Positions 9,601 through 57,982 of a DNA stretch of 64,000 nt are shown one piece after another. Origin of the DNA: Alphaproteobacteria bacterium (GTDB lineage Bacteria > Pseudomonadota > Alphaproteobacteria > Bin95); contig OZ219786.1 in NCBI GenBank assembly GCA_964291285.2, positions 608,001 to 672,000 of the forward strand. The letters run 5' to 3'. Each line of letters opens with the position of its first letter. Position 1 is the first letter of the stretch. The notes beneath the pieces are model-generated. The model saw only the letters and a list, made by a program, of their open reading frames with translations, searched no databases and was not told the origin of the DNA. The position numbers and the translations under genes are program-made.

Positions 9601-11614
9601 CCCGACTTCCGCAACTCGGCTTGAGAATCGACTGATTTGACGGTTTTCCGGCGCGAGAAGTGTCGGATTTCGGTGCAGTACCTCTCGGGACCGGCTTGTA
9701 GTGCCGACCTACCCCCTTGATCGGGCTGGCGAAGATCCGGACGCTGCGCTGATGTTCGTGCGCTGCAAGAGACGCTTCAAGGACGGCAAGGAGCACCGCT
9801 ACTGGAGCGTTGTGGAGAACGTCCGGGTCCACGGCGGTCGGGTTGTTCAGCGTCAGGTGCTCTATCTCGGGGAGATCAACGACAGCCAGCGAGCGGCGTG
9901 GTGCCGCTCGATCGAGGTGGTGGAGGGCAAGTCGCGATCACGGCAGATGGCGCTGTTTCCCGAGGACCGGGAGGCGCCGGCGCTGACTTGCGAAGTGGTG
10001 AAGATCGACCTCTCGCAGGTGGCGCTTCACGACCCGCGCCAGTGGGGGGCGTGCTGGCTGGCGCTGTCCTTGTGGGACCGCCTGGACCTGGACCGCTTCT
10101 GGGAAGAGCGGCTGCCGGCGAGCCGGCAAGGCACGCGGTGGCTGGACATCCTGAAGATCCAGGTCTGCTACCGGCTGATCGACCCGGGCAGCGAGTGGCG
10201 CCTTCACCGTCACTGGTATGAGCACAGCGCGCTTCGCGATCTTCTGGGTGGCGAGCGGGCGATCGCCGACGACACACTCTATCGCTGTCTCGACAAGCTG
10301 CTGGCGCACAAGCAGGGCTTCTTCTCGTTTCTGCGCGACCGCTGGGCGACGCTGTTCGAGGCGCGCTTCGACGTGCTGCTCTACGACCTGACCTCGACCT
10401 ACTTCGAGAGCGATCCGCCGTTCGATGACAAGCGCCGCTTCGGCTACAGCCGGGACAAGCGGCCCGACTGCGTGCAGGTGGTGATCGCCCTGATCGTTAC
10501 GCCGCAGGGCTTTCCGCTGGCCTATGAGGTGATGCCGGGCAACACCTCCGACGACACCACGCTGGCGGCGTTCCTCAAGAAGATCGAGGATCAGTATGGC
10601 CGCTCCGAGCGGGTGTGGATCATGGACCGCGGCATCCCCACCGAGGAGACGCTGGCCGCGATGCGCGAGGGCGAGGCGCCGGTGCGCTACCTGGTGGGCA
10701 CGCCCAAGGGCCGGCTGACGCGGCTCGAGAAGGTGTTCCTGGGCCTGCCCTGGCAGGAGGTGCGCCAGTCCGTGACTGTCAAGCTTCTGGTCGAGGATGG
10801 CGAGCTCTACGTCCTGGTGCGCAGCGAGGGGCGGCAGGTGAAGGAACGCGGCATGCGCCGGCGCCGGCTGAAGAGGCTGTGGCGTCGATTGGCCGAGTTG
10901 CAAGGGCAGTCGAACAGCCGGGATCAGTTGTTGCTCAAGCTCGGCGCCGCCAGGAAGGAGGCCGGCCGGGCCTGGAGCCTGGTCGACATCACCGTGCCCG
11001 GGACCGACAGCGAACTCGCCGCCAACGGCTTCTCATTCCGCCTGCAGCGCGACCGGCTGCGCCAGGTCCGCCGCCGCGAGGGCCGTTACCTGCTGCGATC
11101 CAACATGGTCGCCGAAGACCCCGCCACGCTGTGGCATCTGTACATGCAGCTCGTCGAGATCGAGCAGGCGTTCAAGGAACTCAAGCACGACCTCGCGATC
11201 CGCCCCATCTTCCATCAGCGCCAAGAGCGCATCGAGGCGCATATCTTCGTCTCGTTCATCGCCTACTGCCTGCTGGTGACCCTGAAGAACCTCGCCCGGC
11301 CGCGCGCCCCGGGCCTCACCCCACGCGCCATCCTTGAGGCCTTCGCCACCATCCAGATGGTGGACGTCCATCTGCCAACCACCGACGGCCGGCACCTCGT
11401 CCTGCCGCGCCACACCCGGCCGAACAAGGAGCACGAGCTACTGCTGCAACAGCTCGGCATGACCTGGCCGCAGCAACCCGCACCCCGGATCTCCGCCTGA
11501 CGGCACACGGCGCCGCCTCTCCGTTCGCCGCCTTGTAGTGCCGACCCTCGGGGAGACGATCAAGGCTATTCAATGAGTTAGCATCCTCATGACCCCCGAG
11601 TTGCGGAAGTCGGG
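9601..11614 (+). mobile_element. IS1634-family insertion sequence, copy 1 (2014 bp)
   Basis: Perfect 19-bp terminal inverted repeats CCCGACTTCCGCAACTCGG / CCGAGTTGCGGAAGTCGGG, flanked by TTAG at 9597-9600 and 11615-11618; near-identical to 33086-35099. Confidence 0.95.
9752..11500 (+). CDS. IS1634-family DDE transposase
   Basis: LLYDLTSTYFE, FGYSRDKRPDC.QVVIAL, WIMDRG, Y..L.EIEQAFKELK.DL.IRPIFHQ...RIEAHIFVSF. Confidence 0.92.
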   Translation: MFVRCKRRFKDGKEHRYWSVVENVRVHGGRVVQRQVLYLGEINDSQRAAWCRSIEVVEGKSRSRQMALFPEDREAPALTCEVVKIDLSQVALHDPRQWGACWLALSLWDRLDLDRFWEERLPASRQGTRWLDILKIQVCYRLIDPGSEWRLHRHWYEHSALRDLLGGERAIADDTLYRCLDKLLAHKQGFFSFLRDRWATLFEARFDVLLYDLTSTYFESDPPFDDKRRFGYSRDKRPDCVQVVIALIVTPQGFPLAYEVMPGNTSDDTTLAAFLKKIEDQYGRSERVWIMDRGIPTEETLAAMREGEAPVRYLVGTPKGRLTRLEKVFLGLPWQEVRQSVTVKLLVEDGELYVLVRSEGRQVKERGMRRRRLKRLWRRLAELQGQSNSRDQLLLKLGAARKEAGRAWSLVDITVPGTDSELAANGFSFRLQRDRLRQVRRREGRYLLRSNMVAEDPATLWHLYMQLVEIEQAFKELKHDLAIRPIFHQRQERIEAHIFVSFIAYCLLVTLKNLARPRAPGLTPRAILEAFATIQMVDVHLPTTDGRHLVLPRHTRPNKEHELLLQQLGMTWPQQPAPRISA

Positions 11615-33085: not shown

Positions 33086-35099
33086 CCCGACTTCCGCAAC
33101 TCGGCTTGAGAATCGACTGATTTGACGGTTTTCCGGCGCGAGAAGTGTCGGATTTCGGTGCAGTACCTCTCGGGACCGGCTTGTAGTGCCGACCTACCCC
33201 CTTGATCGGGCTGGCGAAGATCCGGACGCTGCGCTGATGTTCGTGCGCTGCAAGAGACGCTTCAAGGACGGCAAGGAGCACCGCTACTGGAGCGTTGTGG
33301 AGAACGTCCGGGTCCACGGCGGTCGGGTTGTTCAGCGTCAGGTGCTCTATCTCGGGGAGATCAACGACAGCCAGCGAGCGGCGTGGTGCCGCTCGATCGA
33401 GGTGGTGGAGGGCAAGTCGCGATCACGGCAGATGGCGCTGTTTCCCGAGGACCGGGAGGCGCCGGCGCTGACTTGCGAAGTGGTGAAGATCGACCTCTCG
33501 CAGGTGGCGCTTCACGACCCGCGCCAGTGGGGGGCGTGCTGGCTGGCGCTGTCCTTGTGGGACCGCCTGGACCTGGACCGCTTCTGGGAAGAGCGGCTGC
33601 CGGCGAGCCGGCAAGGCACGCGGTGGCTGGACATCCTGAAGATCCAGGTCTGCTACCGGCTGATCGACCCGGGCAGCGAGTGGCGCCTTCACCGTCACTG
33701 GTATGAGCACAGCGCGCTTCGCGATCTTCTGGGTGGCGAGCGGGCGATCGCCGACGACACACTCTATCGCTGTCTCGACAAGCTGCTGGCGCACAAGCAG
33801 GGCTTCTTCTCGTTTCTGCGCGACCGCTGGGCGACGCTGTTCGAGGCGCGCTTCGACGTGCTGCTCTACGACCTGACCTCGACCTACTTCGAGAGCGATC
33901 CGCCGTTCGATGACAAGCGCCGCTTCGGCTACAGCCGGGACAAGCGGCCCGACTGCGTGCAGGTGGTGATCGCCCTGATCGTTACGCCGCAGGGCTTTCC
34001 GCTGGCCTATGAGGTGATGCCGGGCAACACCTCCGACGACACCACGCTGGCGGCGTTCCTCAAGAAGATCGAGGATCAGTATGGCCGCTCCGAGCGGGTG
34101 TGGATCATGGACCGCGGCATCCCCACCGAGGAGACGCTGGCCGCGATGCGCGAGGGCGAGGCGCCGGTGCGCTACCTGGTGGGCACGCCCAAGGGCCGGC
34201 TGACGCGGCTCGAGAAGGTGTTCCTGGGCCTGCCCTGGCAGGAGGTGCGCCAGTCCGTGACTGTCAAGCTTCTGGTCGAGGATGGCGAGCTCTACGTCCT
34301 GGTGCGCAGCGAGGGGCGGCAGGTGAAGGAACGCGGCATGCGCCGGCGCCGGCTGAAGAGGCTGTGGCGTCGATTGGCCGAGTTGCAAGGGCAGTCGAAC
34401 AGCCGGGATCAGTTGTTGCTCAAGCTCGGCGCCGCCAGGAAGGAGGCCGGCCGGGCCTGGAGCCTGGTCGACATCACCGTGCCCGGGACCGACAGCGAAC
34501 TCGCCGCCAACGGCTTCTCATTCCGCCTGCAGCGCGACCGGCTGCGCCAGGTCCGCCGCCGCGAGGGCCGTTACCTGCTGCGATCCAACATGGTCGCCGA
34601 AGACCCCGCCACGCTGTGGCATCTGTACATGCAGCTCGTCGAGATCGAGCAGGCGTTCAAGGAACTCAAGCACGACCTCGCGATCCGCCCCATCTTCCAT
34701 CAGCGCCAAGAGCGCATCGAGGCGCATATCTTCGTCTCGTTCATCGCCTACTGCCTGCTGGTGACCCTGAAGAACCTCGCCCGGCCGCACGCCCCGGGCC
34801 TCACCCCACGCGCCATCCTTGAGGCCTTCGCCACCATCCAGATGGTGGACGTCCATCTGCCAACCACCGACGGCCGGCACCTCGTCCTGCCGCGCCACAC
34901 CCGGCCGAACAAGGAGCACGAGCTACTGCTGCAACAGCTCGGCATGACCTGGCCGCAGCAACCCGCACCCCGGATCTCCGCCTGACGGCACACGGCGCCG
35001 CCTCTCCGTTCGCCGCCTTGTAGTGCCGACCCTCGGGGAGACGATCAAGGCTATTCAATGAGTTAGCATCCTCATGACCCCCGAGTTGCGGAAGTCGGG
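33086..35099 (+). mobile_element. IS1634-family insertion sequence, copy 2 (2014 bp)
   Basis: Same 19-bp IRs; CTAG on both sides (33082-85 and 35100-03). One visible difference from copy 1 (G11304 vs A34789, Arg/His). Confidence 0.95.
33237..34985 (+). CDS. IS1634-family DDE transposase
   Basis: Identical to 9752..11500 except one residue. Confidence 0.92.
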   Translation: MFVRCKRRFKDGKEHRYWSVVENVRVHGGRVVQRQVLYLGEINDSQRAAWCRSIEVVEGKSRSRQMALFPEDREAPALTCEVVKIDLSQVALHDPRQWGACWLALSLWDRLDLDRFWEERLPASRQGTRWLDILKIQVCYRLIDPGSEWRLHRHWYEHSALRDLLGGERAIADDTLYRCLDKLLAHKQGFFSFLRDRWATLFEARFDVLLYDLTSTYFESDPPFDDKRRFGYSRDKRPDCVQVVIALIVTPQGFPLAYEVMPGNTSDDTTLAAFLKKIEDQYGRSERVWIMDRGIPTEETLAAMREGEAPVRYLVGTPKGRLTRLEKVFLGLPWQEVRQSVTVKLLVEDGELYVLVRSEGRQVKERGMRRRRLKRLWRRLAELQGQSNSRDQLLLKLGAARKEAGRAWSLVDITVPGTDSELAANGFSFRLQRDRLRQVRRREGRYLLRSNMVAEDPATLWHLYMQLVEIEQAFKELKHDLAIRPIFHQRQERIEAHIFVSFIAYCLLVTLKNLARPHAPGLTPRAILEAFATIQMVDVHLPTTDGRHLVLPRHTRPNKEHELLLQQLGMTWPQQPAPRISA

Positions 35100-36929
35100 C
35101 TAGGAGAAGAGGAGTTTGGCAGACTGTATACCGGCGTCGTCCTGGAGATGTCGCCGCTGCCGGGCTTCCGGCCCGGCCGGGGGAAGCCGGGTCTGCAGCG
35201 TCTGCTCTGGCCCTGGCTGCGCGGATTCGGCGATCCGCTCGCATATGCGGGCGCCTGCGGGTTGCTCCTTGCGCTGCCGGGGATCGCCATTCCGTTGCTG
35301 CTCGCGGGCTTCGTCGACTACACACTCGAAGGTGGCGAGCAGGCTTGGGGCGCGGTGTTCGTCGGCGCGATGCTGGTGGCGTCCGCGCTCTTGTATGCGC
35401 TCACATGGTTGCAGCAACGCTGTTTGCATCGCCTGACCCTGCATGTCTCCGTGGAGCAGGCGGATCGCTTCGTCACGCGGCTCCTGCAACTCCCGATCGA
35501 CTACTTCTCGCGCCGCCAGCCCGGTGACATAGTGGCTCGCTTGAAGTCCATCGACGAGACGGCGGCCACGGCGTCGAGGGAACTTGTGGCGCTCTGCATC
35601 GAGCTGGCGATGAGTGCGCTCTTTCTTGTTCTGATGTTTGCGATGGACGGCTTGCTGGCGGCCATGGTGGCCACGCTGGCCGTCATGTGCGTGGCTCTGA
35701 TGCGCCTGCTTTCGCGATATCGAGTGGACACCAATCAGATCTGGAGCAAGGAGAAGGGCCAGCTACACGGCATCGAGATGGAGAACATCGGGCGAATCGA
35801 CTCCGCTCACGTCAAGGCACAGGAACACGATTGCCTCGCCCGGATGGGCGGGCACCAGGCGCGCGAGGTAGTCGCCCGACAACGGGTCTTCGCGCTCGGT
35901 CAAGTGATCGCGTCGTTCCCCGCGCTGTTCCAGGTGCTGGGCAGCGCGCTCGTACTGGGCTTCGGCGGCTGGCGCGTCATGGTCGGCGACATGAGTCCTG
36001 GTCTTCTGATGGGGTTCTTCCTCGTGGCGGAGAACTTTCTGCGCCCGGTGGCCCGCTTTGTGGAGTTCGCTGATCGGATGCGCGTTCTCGAAGCCGGCCT
36101 CCTGCGCGTACGCGATATCGCAGACGCCGCGCCTGACGAGGGCCAGACAACATTGCAGGACGGCACGGCTGCCCGGACGATTTCCACGATCGACGGCCGC
36201 CTGCGGACGGTCGGCCGCGTTCGCTTCGAGGACGTTACCTTCGGATACCGTCGCGGCGTGCCTCTCATCGAGAATTTCAGCCTGTCCGTCGAACCCGGCC
36301 AGCGGGTGGCCATCGTCGGGTCGAGCGGCTCCGGCAAGTCGACACTCGCCGGATTGCTCGCCGGCCTCAACCGGCCGTGGTCGGGACGCATCCTGCTCGA
36401 CGGCCATCCGCATGCCGACATTCCCAACCCCGTCCTGACCCGGTCCGTGGCAATCGTGGAGCAGCGCATCCAGCTCTTCGAGGGCAGCATTCGCGACAAC
36501 CTGACCATGTGGGACCCGACCGTGGCGGACGAAGCCATCATGGCGGCCGCCCGCGATGCGGCGATACACGACGAAATCATGGCCCGCGCAGATGGCTACG
36601 ATGCGCGTGTCGCCGAGGGAGGGCACAACTTCAGCGGCGGCCAGCGTCAACGGCTGGAAATCGCCCGCGCCCTCGTCAGCGACCCGTCCGTGTTGATCCT
36701 CGACGAAGCAACGGCGTCCCTGGATCCTGTGGTCGAACTGCGGGTGGACGACGCGTTGCGCCGTCGCGGCTGTACTTGCTTCATCGTCGCCCACCGTCTC
36801 AGCACGATCCGCGACGCCGACCTGATCGTTGTGCTCGAAAGCGGCAGGGAGGTGAAGCGCGGCTCCCACGAGCAACTGCTAGCCGAGCCCGGCGGCGCCT
36901 ACGGACGCCTGTTGGAGAGCGCGTCGTGA
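35100..36929 (+). pseudogene. NHLP bacteriocin export ABC transporter (peptidase/permease/ATPase type) missing most of its C39 peptidase domain
   Basis: The frame opens at the IS end with LGEEEFGRLYTGVVLEM, the tail of a C39 domain. Then an ABC membrane domain, GSSGSGKST, FEGSIRDNLTMWD, NFSGGQRQRLEIARAL, LRRRGCTC.IVAHRLSTIRD (TIGR03796-like). Confidence 0.82.
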
Positions 36930-39900
36930 CGACGGCCAGGCCACGGGACGACGCCGTTGCCGTCGTCGACGCATTTCGGGAGCGGGCGACGGGAGCGGGC
37001 GAACCGGTCCGCGGCGGCGCCAACAGGATGGTCGTCCTCGACGACGCGAACGTTGTCTGGTTCGTCGAGAGCGGCTCGCTGGACGTCTTCGTTGTCGAGT
37101 ACCACGAGGCCGATGCCGCTCTTAGCGCGTCGAGACTCAAGCACGTGTTCCGGGCGGGGCCGGGAGAAGTTGCGTTCGCCTTCCTGCCCACCGAGTCCGC
37201 GTTGCGGCTCGTCGCAAAGGGTTCGGCGGACGCCCGACTGCGCCGGGTACCGGTCTCGGCCTTGCTCGACAAGGAATTTGTCAACGCGCTGTCCGGGCGA
37301 GTGGATGTGTGGGTGACGGCGCTCTGCGCGGCGGTCGTGCGCGACATCACGCTGCGCCCACGGATCGCCCGGCGCATCGAAGCTCCCGGCGAGGTGGAAC
37401 TGCCGGCGGGAGCCGTCGTGGCCGCCCGGCGCGGCGTGGCATGGATCACCTTGCCGGAAGACGGCGGAGGGGCAGCGTATCTGGACACCGAAGCGCTCGA
37501 CGGAGAGGGCCTCACGTTCGCCCCCGTTACCCGGGAAGCGTGGCTACGGCTCGGGGATCCGATCGCGCTGCCATGCGCCACCACCGAACAACTGCTGAGC
37601 AGCGGGGCTCTGTCGCGGGCTCTGGCGGATTTCCACTGTCTGATCGCGCGCGCCGAACTGTTCAACCGCCAACTGCTGTTGGCCGACGTGGCTCAGGCGC
37701 AGATGGAGTCGCGTCGCCATCAGCTTGCCAGCGAGCATGGTGCCCGGCGTGGCCTTGCCGGCCTCCTCCGACACGGTGCCGGCTGGCTGCGCGCGCGGGC
37801 GGATGCGGTTCCCGACGGTCGGCAAAGCGCGTTGGCGGCGGCACTCGCCGCCATCGGCGAGTGGGATGACATTCGATTTCGCGAACCCCGCACCGAGGGG
37901 CGGGACTCCGACACGATGCCGATGCTCGATGACATTCTGCACGCTTCCGGCGTGCGCGGCCGACGTGTCACACTGGCGGTCGAGGATCGCTGGTGGCGTG
38001 GCGACAGCGGCGCCCTGTTGGGGTTCCTGCGCGAGGGCGACGAGCCGGTGGCGCTGCTGCCGGGGCGGACGGGCGGCTACCGCATGGTGACTCATCGCGG
38101 TACCCGACGCATCGATGCCGCCGGGGCGCGGTTGCTCCACCCGCATGCGTGGACATTCCTTCGATCTTTGCCCGATGAGCGCAAGGCCACCGGCGGCGAT
38201 CTTCTGCGCACTGCCGGGACGCGTTTGGGCCTCGACCTGCTCCGCGTCTCACTGCTCGGCTTGGTAGTCGGCATGGTGTTGCTGGCTCCGGCTGTCGTGT
38301 TCGGCTTGCTGACCGACCACTTCATCCCCGCCGGCGCCGCTAGCGCGCTGCTGCAGTTGACCGCGCTGCTCGTCGTGCTGGGCGCGGCTGGCGCGGTGCT
38401 GCAAATTCTTCAGGGCACGACGATGCTGAAGCTGGAGGCGCGCATCGCCCTGCACCTCGATGCGGCGATTCAGGACCGAATGTACAAGCTGCCGCCGGCT
38501 TTCATGCGCAGATTCACAACCGGCGACCTCGCCATGCGTGCGTCCTCCTTCCGCACCCTTCGCGATCGTGTCTCGGGCATGATCCTGCAATCCCTGCTGT
38601 CCGCGGTCTTTCTGCTGCCCACATTCCTGTTCCTGTTCTTCTACGACATCGCCATGGGCTGGATCGGTCTGGCCCTGGGGGCGACCGTCCTAGCGCTCGG
38701 CGCCGTGCTCGGGTTCAGGCAGATCGAGCCTCAGCGTCGCTGGTTCGACGCGTCACGGGAGGTGGCGAGCGTACTGCGGCAGTTCCTGAACAGCATGGGA
38801 AAACTGCGAACCACCGGAGCCCAGGCGAGCGCATACACAATCTGGGCGCAACGATACCGGGAGCAGCAACGAGCGTTTGTCGACATCGGCACTTTCGACC
38901 ATCACCTGGTGGCGCTCGGCGTCGCGGCACCCGCATTCGCGGGGACGGTGCTTCTCTGGGCCGCGTGGACGCATTTCGATGGCACCACCGGTGACTTTCT
39001 CGCCATCTTTACTGCATTCATGGTCTTCAATCTGGCGATCACCCGGCTGGCAAATTCCTTCTCCGCGCTTGCCGGCGTCTGGCCGGGCGTGGACCAGGTG
39101 CGCCCGCTGCTGGAGCAGCAGCCGGACCCTCGTCTGGTGAGCGCCGAAACAACGAGCGGCAATGGCCGCGGCACGGTCGGCGGCGCGAGGAGCCGCAGCC
39201 GGCTCGCGCGATACGCGAACGCTGCGCCGGATTCCGAACCGGACACATCCACGAGAAGAGATATCGAGATCAGAGGCGGAATCGGTATCCACCACGTAAT
39301 ACCAACGGTCGTTGATTGGAACCGATAGCAGATCCTCCCTCCGCAGCTCGCCCCCTGAGCCGAGGCCTCCTACTGCAAGAGGTAATCTCCGCCGAGAGAG
39401 GCTAATCGGTTCTTATCTGTGGCCGGTGGTATAAGCTGGGGCTATGACGATGGGCCGCTGGTGCTCGAGGATGTGTCGCTGCATGCCGACCCCGGCGAGT
39501 TCATCGCCATCGTCGGCGGATCGGGCGCCGGCAAGAGCACCTTGCTGCGTCTGGCGCTCGGTCTGGCACGGCCGACATCGGGTTTCGTCAGCTATGACGG
39601 CCGGGATCTGGAGCATCTGGATGCGGTGTCGATACGGCGGCAAATCTCGGTCGTGCTGCAGGACGGCGACCTGCCGGAAGGCTCGGTGGAGGACGCGATT
39701 CTCGGGGTCTCGAACAGTCTCACCATCAACGACGCCTGGCAGGCGGCCCGCCTCGCGGCCGTCAGCGACGATATCGCCGCCATGCCGATGGGCATGCACA
39801 CCGTGATCGGATCCAGCGGGACAACGCTGTCCGGCGGCCAGGTTCAGCGCATCCAGATCGCCGCAGCGTTGGTGCGCAACCCCCACATCCTGATTCTCGA

Positions 39901-40126
39901 CGAAGCGACCAACTGGCTGGACAACCGGAAGCAGGCCGAGGTGATGCACAACATCGAACATCTGGAAATCACCCGCATCGTGGTAGCCCATCGGATGTCC
40001 ACGATTCGCCATGCCGACCGCATCTACGTACTTGAAGCGGGCAAGGTCGTTCAGCAGGGTTCCTATGGCGCCCTGGCCGACCGGGAGGGAACCTTTCGCG
40101 ATCTGATCCGGCGCCAGCTCGCTTGA
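36926..40126 (+). pseudogene. NHLM bacteriocin system ABC transporter ATP-binding protein, interrupted by the 132-bp element
   Basis: GTGA overlap with the previous gene; VWFVESGSLDVF, R.R.V.L....WW..DSG.LLGF...PVALLP (TIGR03797-like). The ATPase part (GGSGAGKST, LSGGQ, LDEAT) continues in the same frame after the insertion. Confidence 0.85.
39300..39431 (+). mobile_element. 132-bp MITE-like structured element, copy A
   Basis: TACC...GGTA ends with imperfect 27-bp terminal IRs; TAA duplication at 39297-99 and 39432-34; 130/132 identical to the reverse complement of 57495-57626. Confidence 0.92.
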
Positions 40127-56713: not shown

Positions 56714-57290
56714 GCGCAGCCACGCGGGCCTGCAATTCGGGCACGACCTCCGCCTCGAACCAGGGGTTCAGTTTCAGCCAGTTGTTCACCCGCCAGCTCG
56801 GATGCGGGATCGGCAGGAAGTCGGGCAGGTAGCCGCGCCACGCCGCCACGGTCTCGCCGAGCGTCTGTCTGCGCCGCTTCCCGAGATAGCGGGCCTGGGC
56901 GTAGGCGCCGGCCAGCACGGTGAGTTCCACTGCCGGGAGTTCGGCGCGCAGGCGCGGATGCCAGAGCGGCGCGCATTCCGGGCGGGGCGGAGCGTCGCCG
57001 CCACGCGGCAGCCGGCCCGGATAGCAGAAGCCCATCGGCAGGATGGCCACCCGGCTTGCATCGTAGAAGTCCTCGGGCGCGAGGCCGAGCCAGGCGCGCA
57101 GCCGCCTACCGCTTGCATCGTCCCAGGGCACGCCGCTCGCATGGACCTTCGTGCCGGGCGCCTGGCCGACGATCATCAACCGTGCGGCCGTTTCGGCCCG
57201 CAGCACCGGCCGGGGGCCGAGCGGCAGACGGTCGGCGCAATGCGTGCAACCGCGCACCTCCGCCAGAAGCGCCTCAAGCCGCGTGCTCAC
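56667..57290 (-). CDS. Uracil-DNA glycosylase family protein
   Basis: C..C, GQAPG..VH.SG.PWDD.SG.RLR.WL, FCYPG, PP.PEC, PHPSWR. Confidence 0.88.
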   Translation of the reverse strand: MSTRLEALLAEVRGCTHCADRLPLGPRPVLRAETAARLMIVGQAPGTKVHASGVPWDDASGRRLRAWLGLAPEDFYDASRVAILPMGFCYPGRLPRGGDAPPRPECAPLWHPRLRAELPAVELTVLAGAYAQARYLGKRRRQTLGETVAAWRGYLPDFLPIPHPSWRVNNWLKLNPWFEAEVVPELQARVAALTSPSSPRPPTGSSR

Positions 57291-57970
57291 GGCGCGAAGG
57301 CCTCGCCGCCGAAGGGATAGCGGACTTCCTCGCGATAGACCGGCGCCGCGCCGCCGAGCCGGCTCGACATGAGCGAGAAGCCGTCCACGGCGAAGGCCGG
57401 CAGGCGGAACGCGCCACGGTCCCCAAGCCAGGCTGCGACGGCGGCCGGGCGCGCGCCGGCCGTGCGGGCAAGGGTTATGTGCGGCGTGAACTTATACCAC
57501 CGGCCACAGATAAGAACCGATTAGCCTCTCTCGGCGGAGATTACCTCTTGCAGTAGGAGGCCTCGGCTCAGGGGGCGAGCTGCGGAGGGAGGCTCTGCTA
57601 TAGGTTCCAATCAACGACCGTTGGTATTACGCTCTTCCGCGGGAAGGCCGGCACGGACGAGCGCCGATTCGACGCGTCGCCTGAGCGCGGTCAGCGGCGC
57701 CGAGCCGGCGACCCCCGCCCAGACCGCCCGTGGCCGCGCACCCCCGAAGCTGCCCAGCGACTCGATGGCGAGCTCGAATTTCTCGCTGCCGACATGGCTG
57801 AGCGCGTCCGCCAGCTCCTCGGCAAAGCCCCGATCCACCTCGCCGATGAAGCGCAGCGTCAGGTGGTAGTTCTCCTCCGGCGACCAGCGCGCGCCGGGAA
57901 GGCCGCCCGCGAGTCCGGCAAGCTGCCGGCGGATGTCCTCCGGCAGGAGTATCGTGGCGAAGAGGCGCAA
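57287..57970 (-). pseudogene. thpR: RNA 2',3'-cyclic phosphodiesterase (2'-5' RNA ligase family) interrupted by the 132-bp element
   Basis: MRLF..., first HxT motif (YHLTLRFIG) before the insertion. Removing the insertion restores EERKFTPHITLAR (second HxT) and an open frame to TGA at 57287. Confidence 0.9.
57495..57626 (-). mobile_element. 132-bp MITE-like structured element, copy B
   Basis: Reverse complement of copy A with 2 substitutions; TTA (TAA on minus) at 57492-94 and 57627-29. Confidence 0.92.
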
Positions 57971-57982
57971 GGTCCGGCCCGG

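Follow-up and report, generated by a model that had tools for sequence, protein, structure and literature searches.

RUP, a 107-bp miniature inverted-repeat transposable element (MITE) of Streptococcus pneumoniae, is attributed to the insertion sequence (IS) IS630-Spn1 (PMC2229807), and a large census includes a MITE labelled MITEEc1_IS630 (PMC11602168). Here we describe a 132-bp MITE from an alphaproteobacterial genome, two copies of which lie in the 64,000-bp stretch that was analyzed (the window; C2:608001-672000 of a 6.13-Mb genome, G000, with 68% G+C and in 5 contigs, to which coordinates prefixed C1 to C5 refer). We predict that the element is mobilized in trans by a resident IS630-family IS, the best candidate being one that we call IS-A, and from sequence comparison we give this reading a probability of roughly 0.8. 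The MITE family itself is new. Its kind is already known, as IS630-derived MITEs include RUP (PMC2229807), so the novelty of the MITE that was implied in a preliminary description of this DNA shrinks to that of the family.

Copy A occupies 39300-39431 on the forward strand and copy B 57495-57626 on the reverse strand. Both are 132 bp long and are identical at 130 of 132 aligned positions; copy A has G and copy B has T at element position 25, and the two have T and G, respectively, at position 34. Copy A is bracketed by TAA at 39297-39299 and again at 39432-39434, a target-site duplication. Copy B is bracketed by TAA, read on the reverse strand, at 57492-57494 on its downstream side and at 57627-57629 on its upstream side. 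The ends, ~27 bp each (TACCANCGG ... GAACCGAT), form imperfect terminal inverted repeats in which 20 of the first 27 positions agree, and all copies start with TACCA and end with TGGTA, except one decayed duplicated copy. The element has 58% G+C, and one of its six frames is open (44 codons), which is unremarkable at such a length; neither window copy sits in that frame and there is no other sign of coding. With its inverted-repeat ends and its 3-bp target duplication, the unit is a non-coding MITE. The preliminary description had reported a non-coding unit of 132 bp in two copies with two differences and TAA duplications, and had called it a non-autonomous MITE; positions and alignment agree with the former, and the lack of a transposase gene, the inverted-repeat ends and the 3-bp TNA duplication bear out the latter. 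IS200/IS605-type elements have neither inverted-repeat ends nor a target duplication, and a palindrome-associated element of that type is ruled out here, as both are present.

A blastn search of its own genome recovers 28 full-length copies of the element and one further copy that is split by another IS. Fourteen of the 28 are identical, and copy B has this master sequence. Two groups of five copies each differ from the 14 by two substitutions, and copy A (G25/T34) belongs to one of these, being identical to its 4 other members. Together, 24 of the 28 copies deviate from the consensus by no more than 2 substitutions, and the other 4, which have 10-17 differences, are older. The picture is that of a recent burst over an older presence of the element.

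The split copy is at C2:1295778-1297854 (locus L035). It is interrupted by a ~1.9-kb IS that encodes a 492-aa DUF772/DDE_Tnp_1 transposase, and element positions 26-33 are duplicated at the break (the two halves overlap by 8 nt). Three pairs of copies have common immediate flanks (C3:84957 and C5:402268; C2:1147238 and C5:265161; C1:195687 and C2:440501) because both members of a pair occupy one position of a larger element that is itself repeated. In two of the three pairs the members are different subfamily variants, for which independent hits at a hot site, conversion and later mutation are candidate explanations.

Of the 28 copies, 26 have one and the same trinucleotide on their two sides, in every case a T-N-A; the two copies without a matching TNA represent one duplicated old copy with a decayed end. 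To count distinct sites, we dropped the three copies that share flanks with another and the two copies of the decayed duplicate, leaving 23. The duplicated triplet is TTA at nine of these sites, TAA at six, TCA at five and TGA at three. G or C precedes the triplet at 23/23 sites and follows it at 19/23. In the genome at large, only 11.6% of TNA trinucleotides are TTA or TAA and only 25.3% lie between two G/C bases; against these backgrounds, the binomial tails are 1.8e-9 for the TTA/TAA preference and 1.3e-8 for the flanking G/C. The preferred target is S-TNA-S (S being G or C), leaning to TWA (TTA or TAA). The target CG^TAA^G that was first put forward is a coincidence of two sites, as the 23 sites share only T-N-A with G or C on each side.

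Three independent lines of evidence set filled sites against empty ones. The site of copy B is empty in 16/16 same-genus genomes, in which the flanks abut without an insert; in the seven loci that were read, the empty site is GAGCG(T/C)AA(G/A)TTC, with exactly CGTAAG in one. We also rebuilt each site as flank, one TNA and flank, and searched for it in the same genome. Uninterrupted paralogous sites are present for 11/28 copies, with 95-100% identity across the junction. These 11 copies sit in other repeated, mostly mobile DNA, and one of them is inside a copy of IS-B, a second IS630-type element described below.

Copy A is polymorphic. In three public runs of a single study (X1-X3), the contigs pass directly from 39296 to 39432, so that precisely 135 bp are missing. 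One long contig crosses the site in each of X2 and X3, extending 255 letters or more to either side and otherwise free of differences. In X1, the contigs of the two flanks stop at the junction; a branch would give this pattern, and it is a hint of two alleles of the site. MITE pieces of X1 and X3 are ~23-25 times as deep as the flanks, which approximates the number of copies in the genome and suggests that these are DNA runs (the library type is not on record); no run is listed as RNA. The insertion in this ABC transporter gene is thus filled in the assembly and empty in the X1-X3 contigs, the assembled genome being the filled allele and X1-X3 the empty one. Of the words of this region, only a small part is present in three sponge-metagenome runs (X4-X6); the pieces from X4, which are 90-95% alike, fail to span the site, and we draw no conclusion from these runs. 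None of the 16 same-genus genomes has a match orthologous to the copy A locus, and the only matches there (69-82%) are confined to the part that encodes the ATPase domain. The preliminary description had placed one copy in an island and one in the core genome, and the loci of copies B and A, matched in 16/16 and 0/16 of these genomes, respectively, are in keeping with this. Its claim of recent movement is upheld by the near-identical copies, the empty sites and the polymorphic copy A. The element is apparently still moving.

The window encodes no IS630-type transposase: the 32 DDE_3 matches of the genome all lie outside C2:608001-672000, in line with the first account, which saw no cognate transposase there. 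The most abundant DDE_3 element of the genome, IS-A, is 1167 bp long and is present in 10 full-length copies (98.5-100% identity) plus fragments. It encodes a helix-turn-helix (HTH) open reading frame (ORF) and a DDE_3 ORF that match the IS630 family transposase model NF033545 at positions 1-132 (ORFA) and 125-298 (ORFB), the latter with 153.7 bits against a cut-off of 100. The transposase also matches PF13358 (DDE_3; 90.4 bits) as well as HTH_29/32/33. IS-A is an IS630-family element.

The ends of IS-A begin TACCAGCGG. Compared in register with one IS-A end, the two MITE ends agree at 21/27 and 19/27 positions, and a hand count over a longer span gives 25/32 for one IS-A end against a MITE end. 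The TACCANCGG terminus and an inner GAACC-AT motif are common to the MITE and IS-A. TNA is found at 20/20 flanks of the 10 full IS-A copies, with matching pairs in 8/10, and the empty paralogues of three IS-A copies have a single TNA at the site, so the 3-bp TNA duplication of this IS630-type branch is verified against empty sites for both IS-A and the MITE. IS-B (1225 bp) likewise has TACCA ends and TNA flanks. IS-A (at least 98% identity) and the MITE co-occur in both genomes that hold the MITE (n=2).

These likenesses lead us to propose that a resident IS630-family IS, with IS-A as the best candidate, supplies a DDE transposase in trans. The ~27-bp terminal inverted repeats of the MITE are the predicted binding and cleavage sites. 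The enzyme would cut the element out and join it to the target at positions staggered by 3 bp, in a T-N-A flanked by G or C, and gap repair would then duplicate the TNA. Three parts of this scheme are inferred: that the enzyme comes from IS-A or a close relative, that the element moves by cut-and-paste and that the stagger is 3 bp.

Several observations weigh against this proposal. No IS in G000, or in the second MITE-holding genome (G061), has ends near-identical to those of the MITE, the best being 21/27. The likeness to the IS-A end is clear but short of the near-identity expected of a proven parent, and classic pairs of a MITE and its parent are usually closer than this. For want of an IS with near-identical ends, IS-A is a candidate and not a proven partner. 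By blastn, no IS of the genome resembles the interior of the MITE, and both MITE ends resemble the same IS-A end, the one beside the 3' end of the transposase gene, instead of one each. Relatives of IS-A (80-92% identity) are present in 10/16 same-genus genomes, all without the MITE, and therefore the presence of the IS does not predict that of the MITE. The filled junction of copy A was not seen among the run pieces listed. Finally, the textbook duplication of IS630/Tc1/mariner elements is TA, 2 bp (PMC2170065), from which the 3-bp TNA of the MITE departs; the resident IS-A and IS-B deviate alike.

Some of these points would also be expected if the recent burst was driven not by IS-A or IS-B but by the cognate parent, an IS630-type IS whose ends are near-identical to those of the MITE and which is now lost from the genome or lies in unsampled DNA. 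We consider this possible but rather doubtful. The modest in-register match of the best IS end in the genome (19-21/27) speaks for it, as do solo or short elements in the genome whose ends match at 23-24/27 positions, and small TACC-ended elements of the same genus whose left ends have up to 93% identity over 30 nt to the left end of the MITE. No transposase adjoins the latter: tblastn of the IS-A ORFs on 13 loci of relatives with similar ends gave only one weak, unrelated match of 27 residues. The genome, however, consists of 5 contigs and has a marker-gene completeness of 100%, and searches with both MITE ends gave no further IS terminus in the own genome (up to 7 mismatches) and none in G061 (up to 3 mismatches). 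The 24 near-identical copies and the polymorphic site argue for an enzyme that is present now. An apparent third IS end, at C1:611966, proved to belong to another small TACC-ended element inside a decayed IS630-type gene.

Small elements of this general build are found at other places as well. Other TACC-ended, TNA-flanked families occur in the genome at C1:615526 (~65 bp), C1:611840-611966, C3:1279847 (~115 bp), C3:22779, C3:2019071 and C2:778515, and in same-genus genomes at loci L036-L044; all of these have MITE-like left ends and different interiors.

An IS5-family transposase is an improbable driver. The textbook duplicators of TNA are the IS1031 group of the IS5 family and the eukaryotic PIF/Harbinger-Tourist system, and the genome has a candidate in F1, a ~933-bp element (DUF4096 and DDE_Tnp_1) that we take to be IS1031-group-like. 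The F1 copies that were read, from the 8 listed of 12 full-length ones, are flanked by TNA between G or C. The ends of F1, however, begin GAGCCTGAC and agree with the MITE ends in register at 5-9/27 positions, which is chance level. Two other delimitable IS5-type families begin GGCAGAATCG or GGCCCTGTGG and are at CTAG-like sites, and the boundaries of a fourth family (F2) are not delimitable. The TACCANCGG terminus and inner motif of the MITE ends are common only to IS630-type elements. The initial suggestion of an IS630- or IS5-like enzyme acting in trans therefore stands in its first half, which fits the terminus, the inner motif and TNA, and falls in its second on the ends.

That copy A is an artefact, a repeat mis-assembled into the ABC transporter gene, is very unlikely. 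The preliminary description had named reads without the insert as a sign of such an artefact, and contigs of the three public runs do carry the gene without the 135 bp. An assembler, however, does not make a perfect 3-bp target duplication, and the TNA architecture is that of 25 other copies. Copy A is moreover a specific subfamily variant that it has in common with four other copies, and the break of the X1 flanking contigs at the junction hints at two alleles. A polymorphic insertion accounts for both forms.

That the unit serves mainly as a functional structured RNA, or as a regulatory repeat of the REP kind, instead of being a transposon is in our view hardly credible. Its predicted fold is a long hairpin (-52.3 and -55.6 kcal/mol, with z near -3 for each strand), but terminal inverted repeats give such a hairpin on either strand, the copies lie both ways round, within genes as well as other ISs, and have target duplications and empty sites, they are too alike for a covariation test, and an Rfam scan of 39000-39800 (E up to 10) returned five sub-threshold, chance-level matches (best 20 bits against a cut-off of 44), so that the Rfam check proposed earlier yields no family at threshold in that interval.

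Within the window, the MITE interrupts two genes. The first, for an NHLP-type bacteriocin export ABC transporter permease/ATPase, is split by copy A, with TIGR03797 (NHLM_micro_ABC2) positions 2-440 matched upstream and 463-686 downstream. The 5' part is at 37826-39298 on the forward strand and corresponds to residues 484-920 of the frame 36377-39298; the start given is the beginning of the profile match. The 3' part, with the ATPase domain, is at 39437-40126 on the same strand (353.7 bits) and is in the same frame as the 5' part. In the filled allele, the frame 36377-39298 reads into the MITE and ends at a stop codon at 39326-39328. Removal of 135 bp had been said to restore the transporter, and this holds: the frame is kept, pieces of TIGR03797 lie on both sides and the X1-X3 contigs have the shorter form.

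Two features of this locus may affect its annotation. A GTG at 39419-39421, in the right end of copy A, is in frame with the open frame of the ATPase domain (39419-40126); separate translation of the ATPase half from this codon is a possibility, with no convincing ribosome-binding site at the usual distance. Upstream of the start of the TIGR03797 match, the transporter frame is open for ~480 codons (36377-37825), for which an N-terminal extension, a fused upstream gene and a chance open frame in G+C-rich DNA are candidates.

Copy B is between the two LigT_PEase (PF02834) halves of a LigT-like 2H phosphoesterase gene on the reverse strand. The 5' part, with the first HxTx lobe, is at 57630-57982 (frame 57611-57982; 68.9 bits), and the 3' part, with the second lobe, is at 57290-57491 (frame 57287-57520; 31.5 bits). 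At both window copies the incoming reading frame meets a stop codon of the element within a few codons. Insertions in genes keep the frame because 132 + 3 = 135. A third interrupted gene, for a class I/II aminotransferase, has a MITE copy at C1:590684. The majority of the other copies lie between genes, at the edges of ORFs or within further mobile DNA, judged from a rough scan based on G+C at third codon positions in which some of the ORFs are transposase genes. The element had been described as inserting into genes; we see no such preference, as only three host genes could be named and 11/28 copies are in repeated, mostly mobile DNA. The MITE explains why three genes are split, those for the NHLP-type exporter, the phosphoesterase and the aminotransferase, and the exporter is intact in at least part of the population. 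It is ordinary selfish DNA, and its chief value is in annotation.

The MITE has a narrow distribution among the genomes searched. It is absent from the 16 other same-genus genomes and from 44 more distant ones; other small elements in several of the same-genus genomes have only the first ~30-70 nt and the TNA flanks in common with it. There is no blastn match in 72,556 plasmids. The exact 37-nt core of the element has no match in the metagenome_contigs set and matches one other genome record in genome_contigs. The only other genome found with the MITE is G061 (OZ219791.1), an alphaproteobacterial metagenome-assembled genome with two full copies (97% and 86%) and three truncated ones (element positions 1-109 and 1-81), which run into unrelated DNA without a transposase. 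IS-A is present there with 98% identity, ~4.4 kb from the best MITE copy. The flanks of the phosphoesterase locus have no DNA match in G061, versus matches in all 16 genus members. G061 is apparently not closely related, and this hints, from two genomes only, at horizontal spread or at recent exchange of a block of mobile DNA. Besides IS-A, neighboring segments are shared: three G061 loci (L045-L047) match G000 at C3:379497-380929, C3:464000-465966 and C3:384460-385886 over 1.4-2 kb with 99.2-99.6% identity.

The MITE flags a genome with a very active mobilome. Its unusually heavy IS load comprises 60 DUF4096 matches, 32 DDE_3 matches and at least 150 DDE_Tnp_1 matches, many as sets of identical copies. 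The window itself has two copies of a DDE_Tnp_1 element with a 619-aa frame, at 10379-11272 and 33864-34757 (C2:618379-619272 and C2:641864-642757).

We tentatively suggest that the MITE and its resident partners belong to a widespread TACC...GGTA branch of the IS630/Tc1/mariner group that uses a 3-bp stagger at S-TNA-S, and not the 2-bp TA of the biochemically studied members. A literature search for IS630 elements with TNA, a 3-bp duplication or a TTA duplication found no relevant paper, within partial coverage of the literature. If the suggestion is true and not on record, the IS and the MITE would be a live, polymorphic pair for studying how a mariner-type active site changes its target spacing. 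As TNA is verified here for an IS630-type IS and its MITE, it is unsafe to assign MITEs to IS5/Harbinger-type enzymes by TNA alone.

Among known systems, the IS1031 group of the IS5 family and the Tourist/PIF-Harbinger MITEs resemble the 132-bp element in their 3-bp TNA, often TWA, duplication. It differs from F1, the resident IS5-type duplicator of TNA, in its unrelated ends (the GAGCCTGAC start and 5-9/27 agreement given above). Another related group is that of alphaproteobacterial IS630 elements with TACCA...TGGTA ends, IS-A and IS-B among them. The arrangement TAA-TACCAACG...GGTA-TAA is present on IS630-family elements of Sinorhizobium fredii SMH12 plasmid psfSMH12b (NZ_CP035039.1) and of a Methylobacterium plasmid (NZ_CP099615.1), with one copy read in each. 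Such elements have in common with the MITE the terminal TACCANCG, an inner GA(A/C)C(C/T)-AT at positions ~19-27, the TNA flanks and the S-TNA-S preference; unlike them, the MITE has no transposase gene and no similarity in its interior, and both of its ends are like one IS end.

Relative to the canonical IS630/ISY100/Tc1-mariner elements (PMC2170065), the presumed enzyme is alike in having DDE_3 and an N-terminal HTH and in its presumed cut-and-paste mode. The canonical elements duplicate the 2-bp TA, whereas the MITE and the resident IS630 elements duplicate 3 bp, as verified at empty sites. With RUP (PMC2229807) there is no sequence relation. RUP targets TA and is A+T-rich, whereas the 132-bp element duplicates a 3-bp TNA, is G+C-rich (58%) and matches the end of its candidate IS at only 19-21/27 positions. 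The two are alike in that each is small, non-coding and in many copies, has ends resembling those of a resident IS630-family IS and is presumed to be moved in trans. RUP often lands in other ISs, and here 11/28 copies are likewise in repeated DNA.

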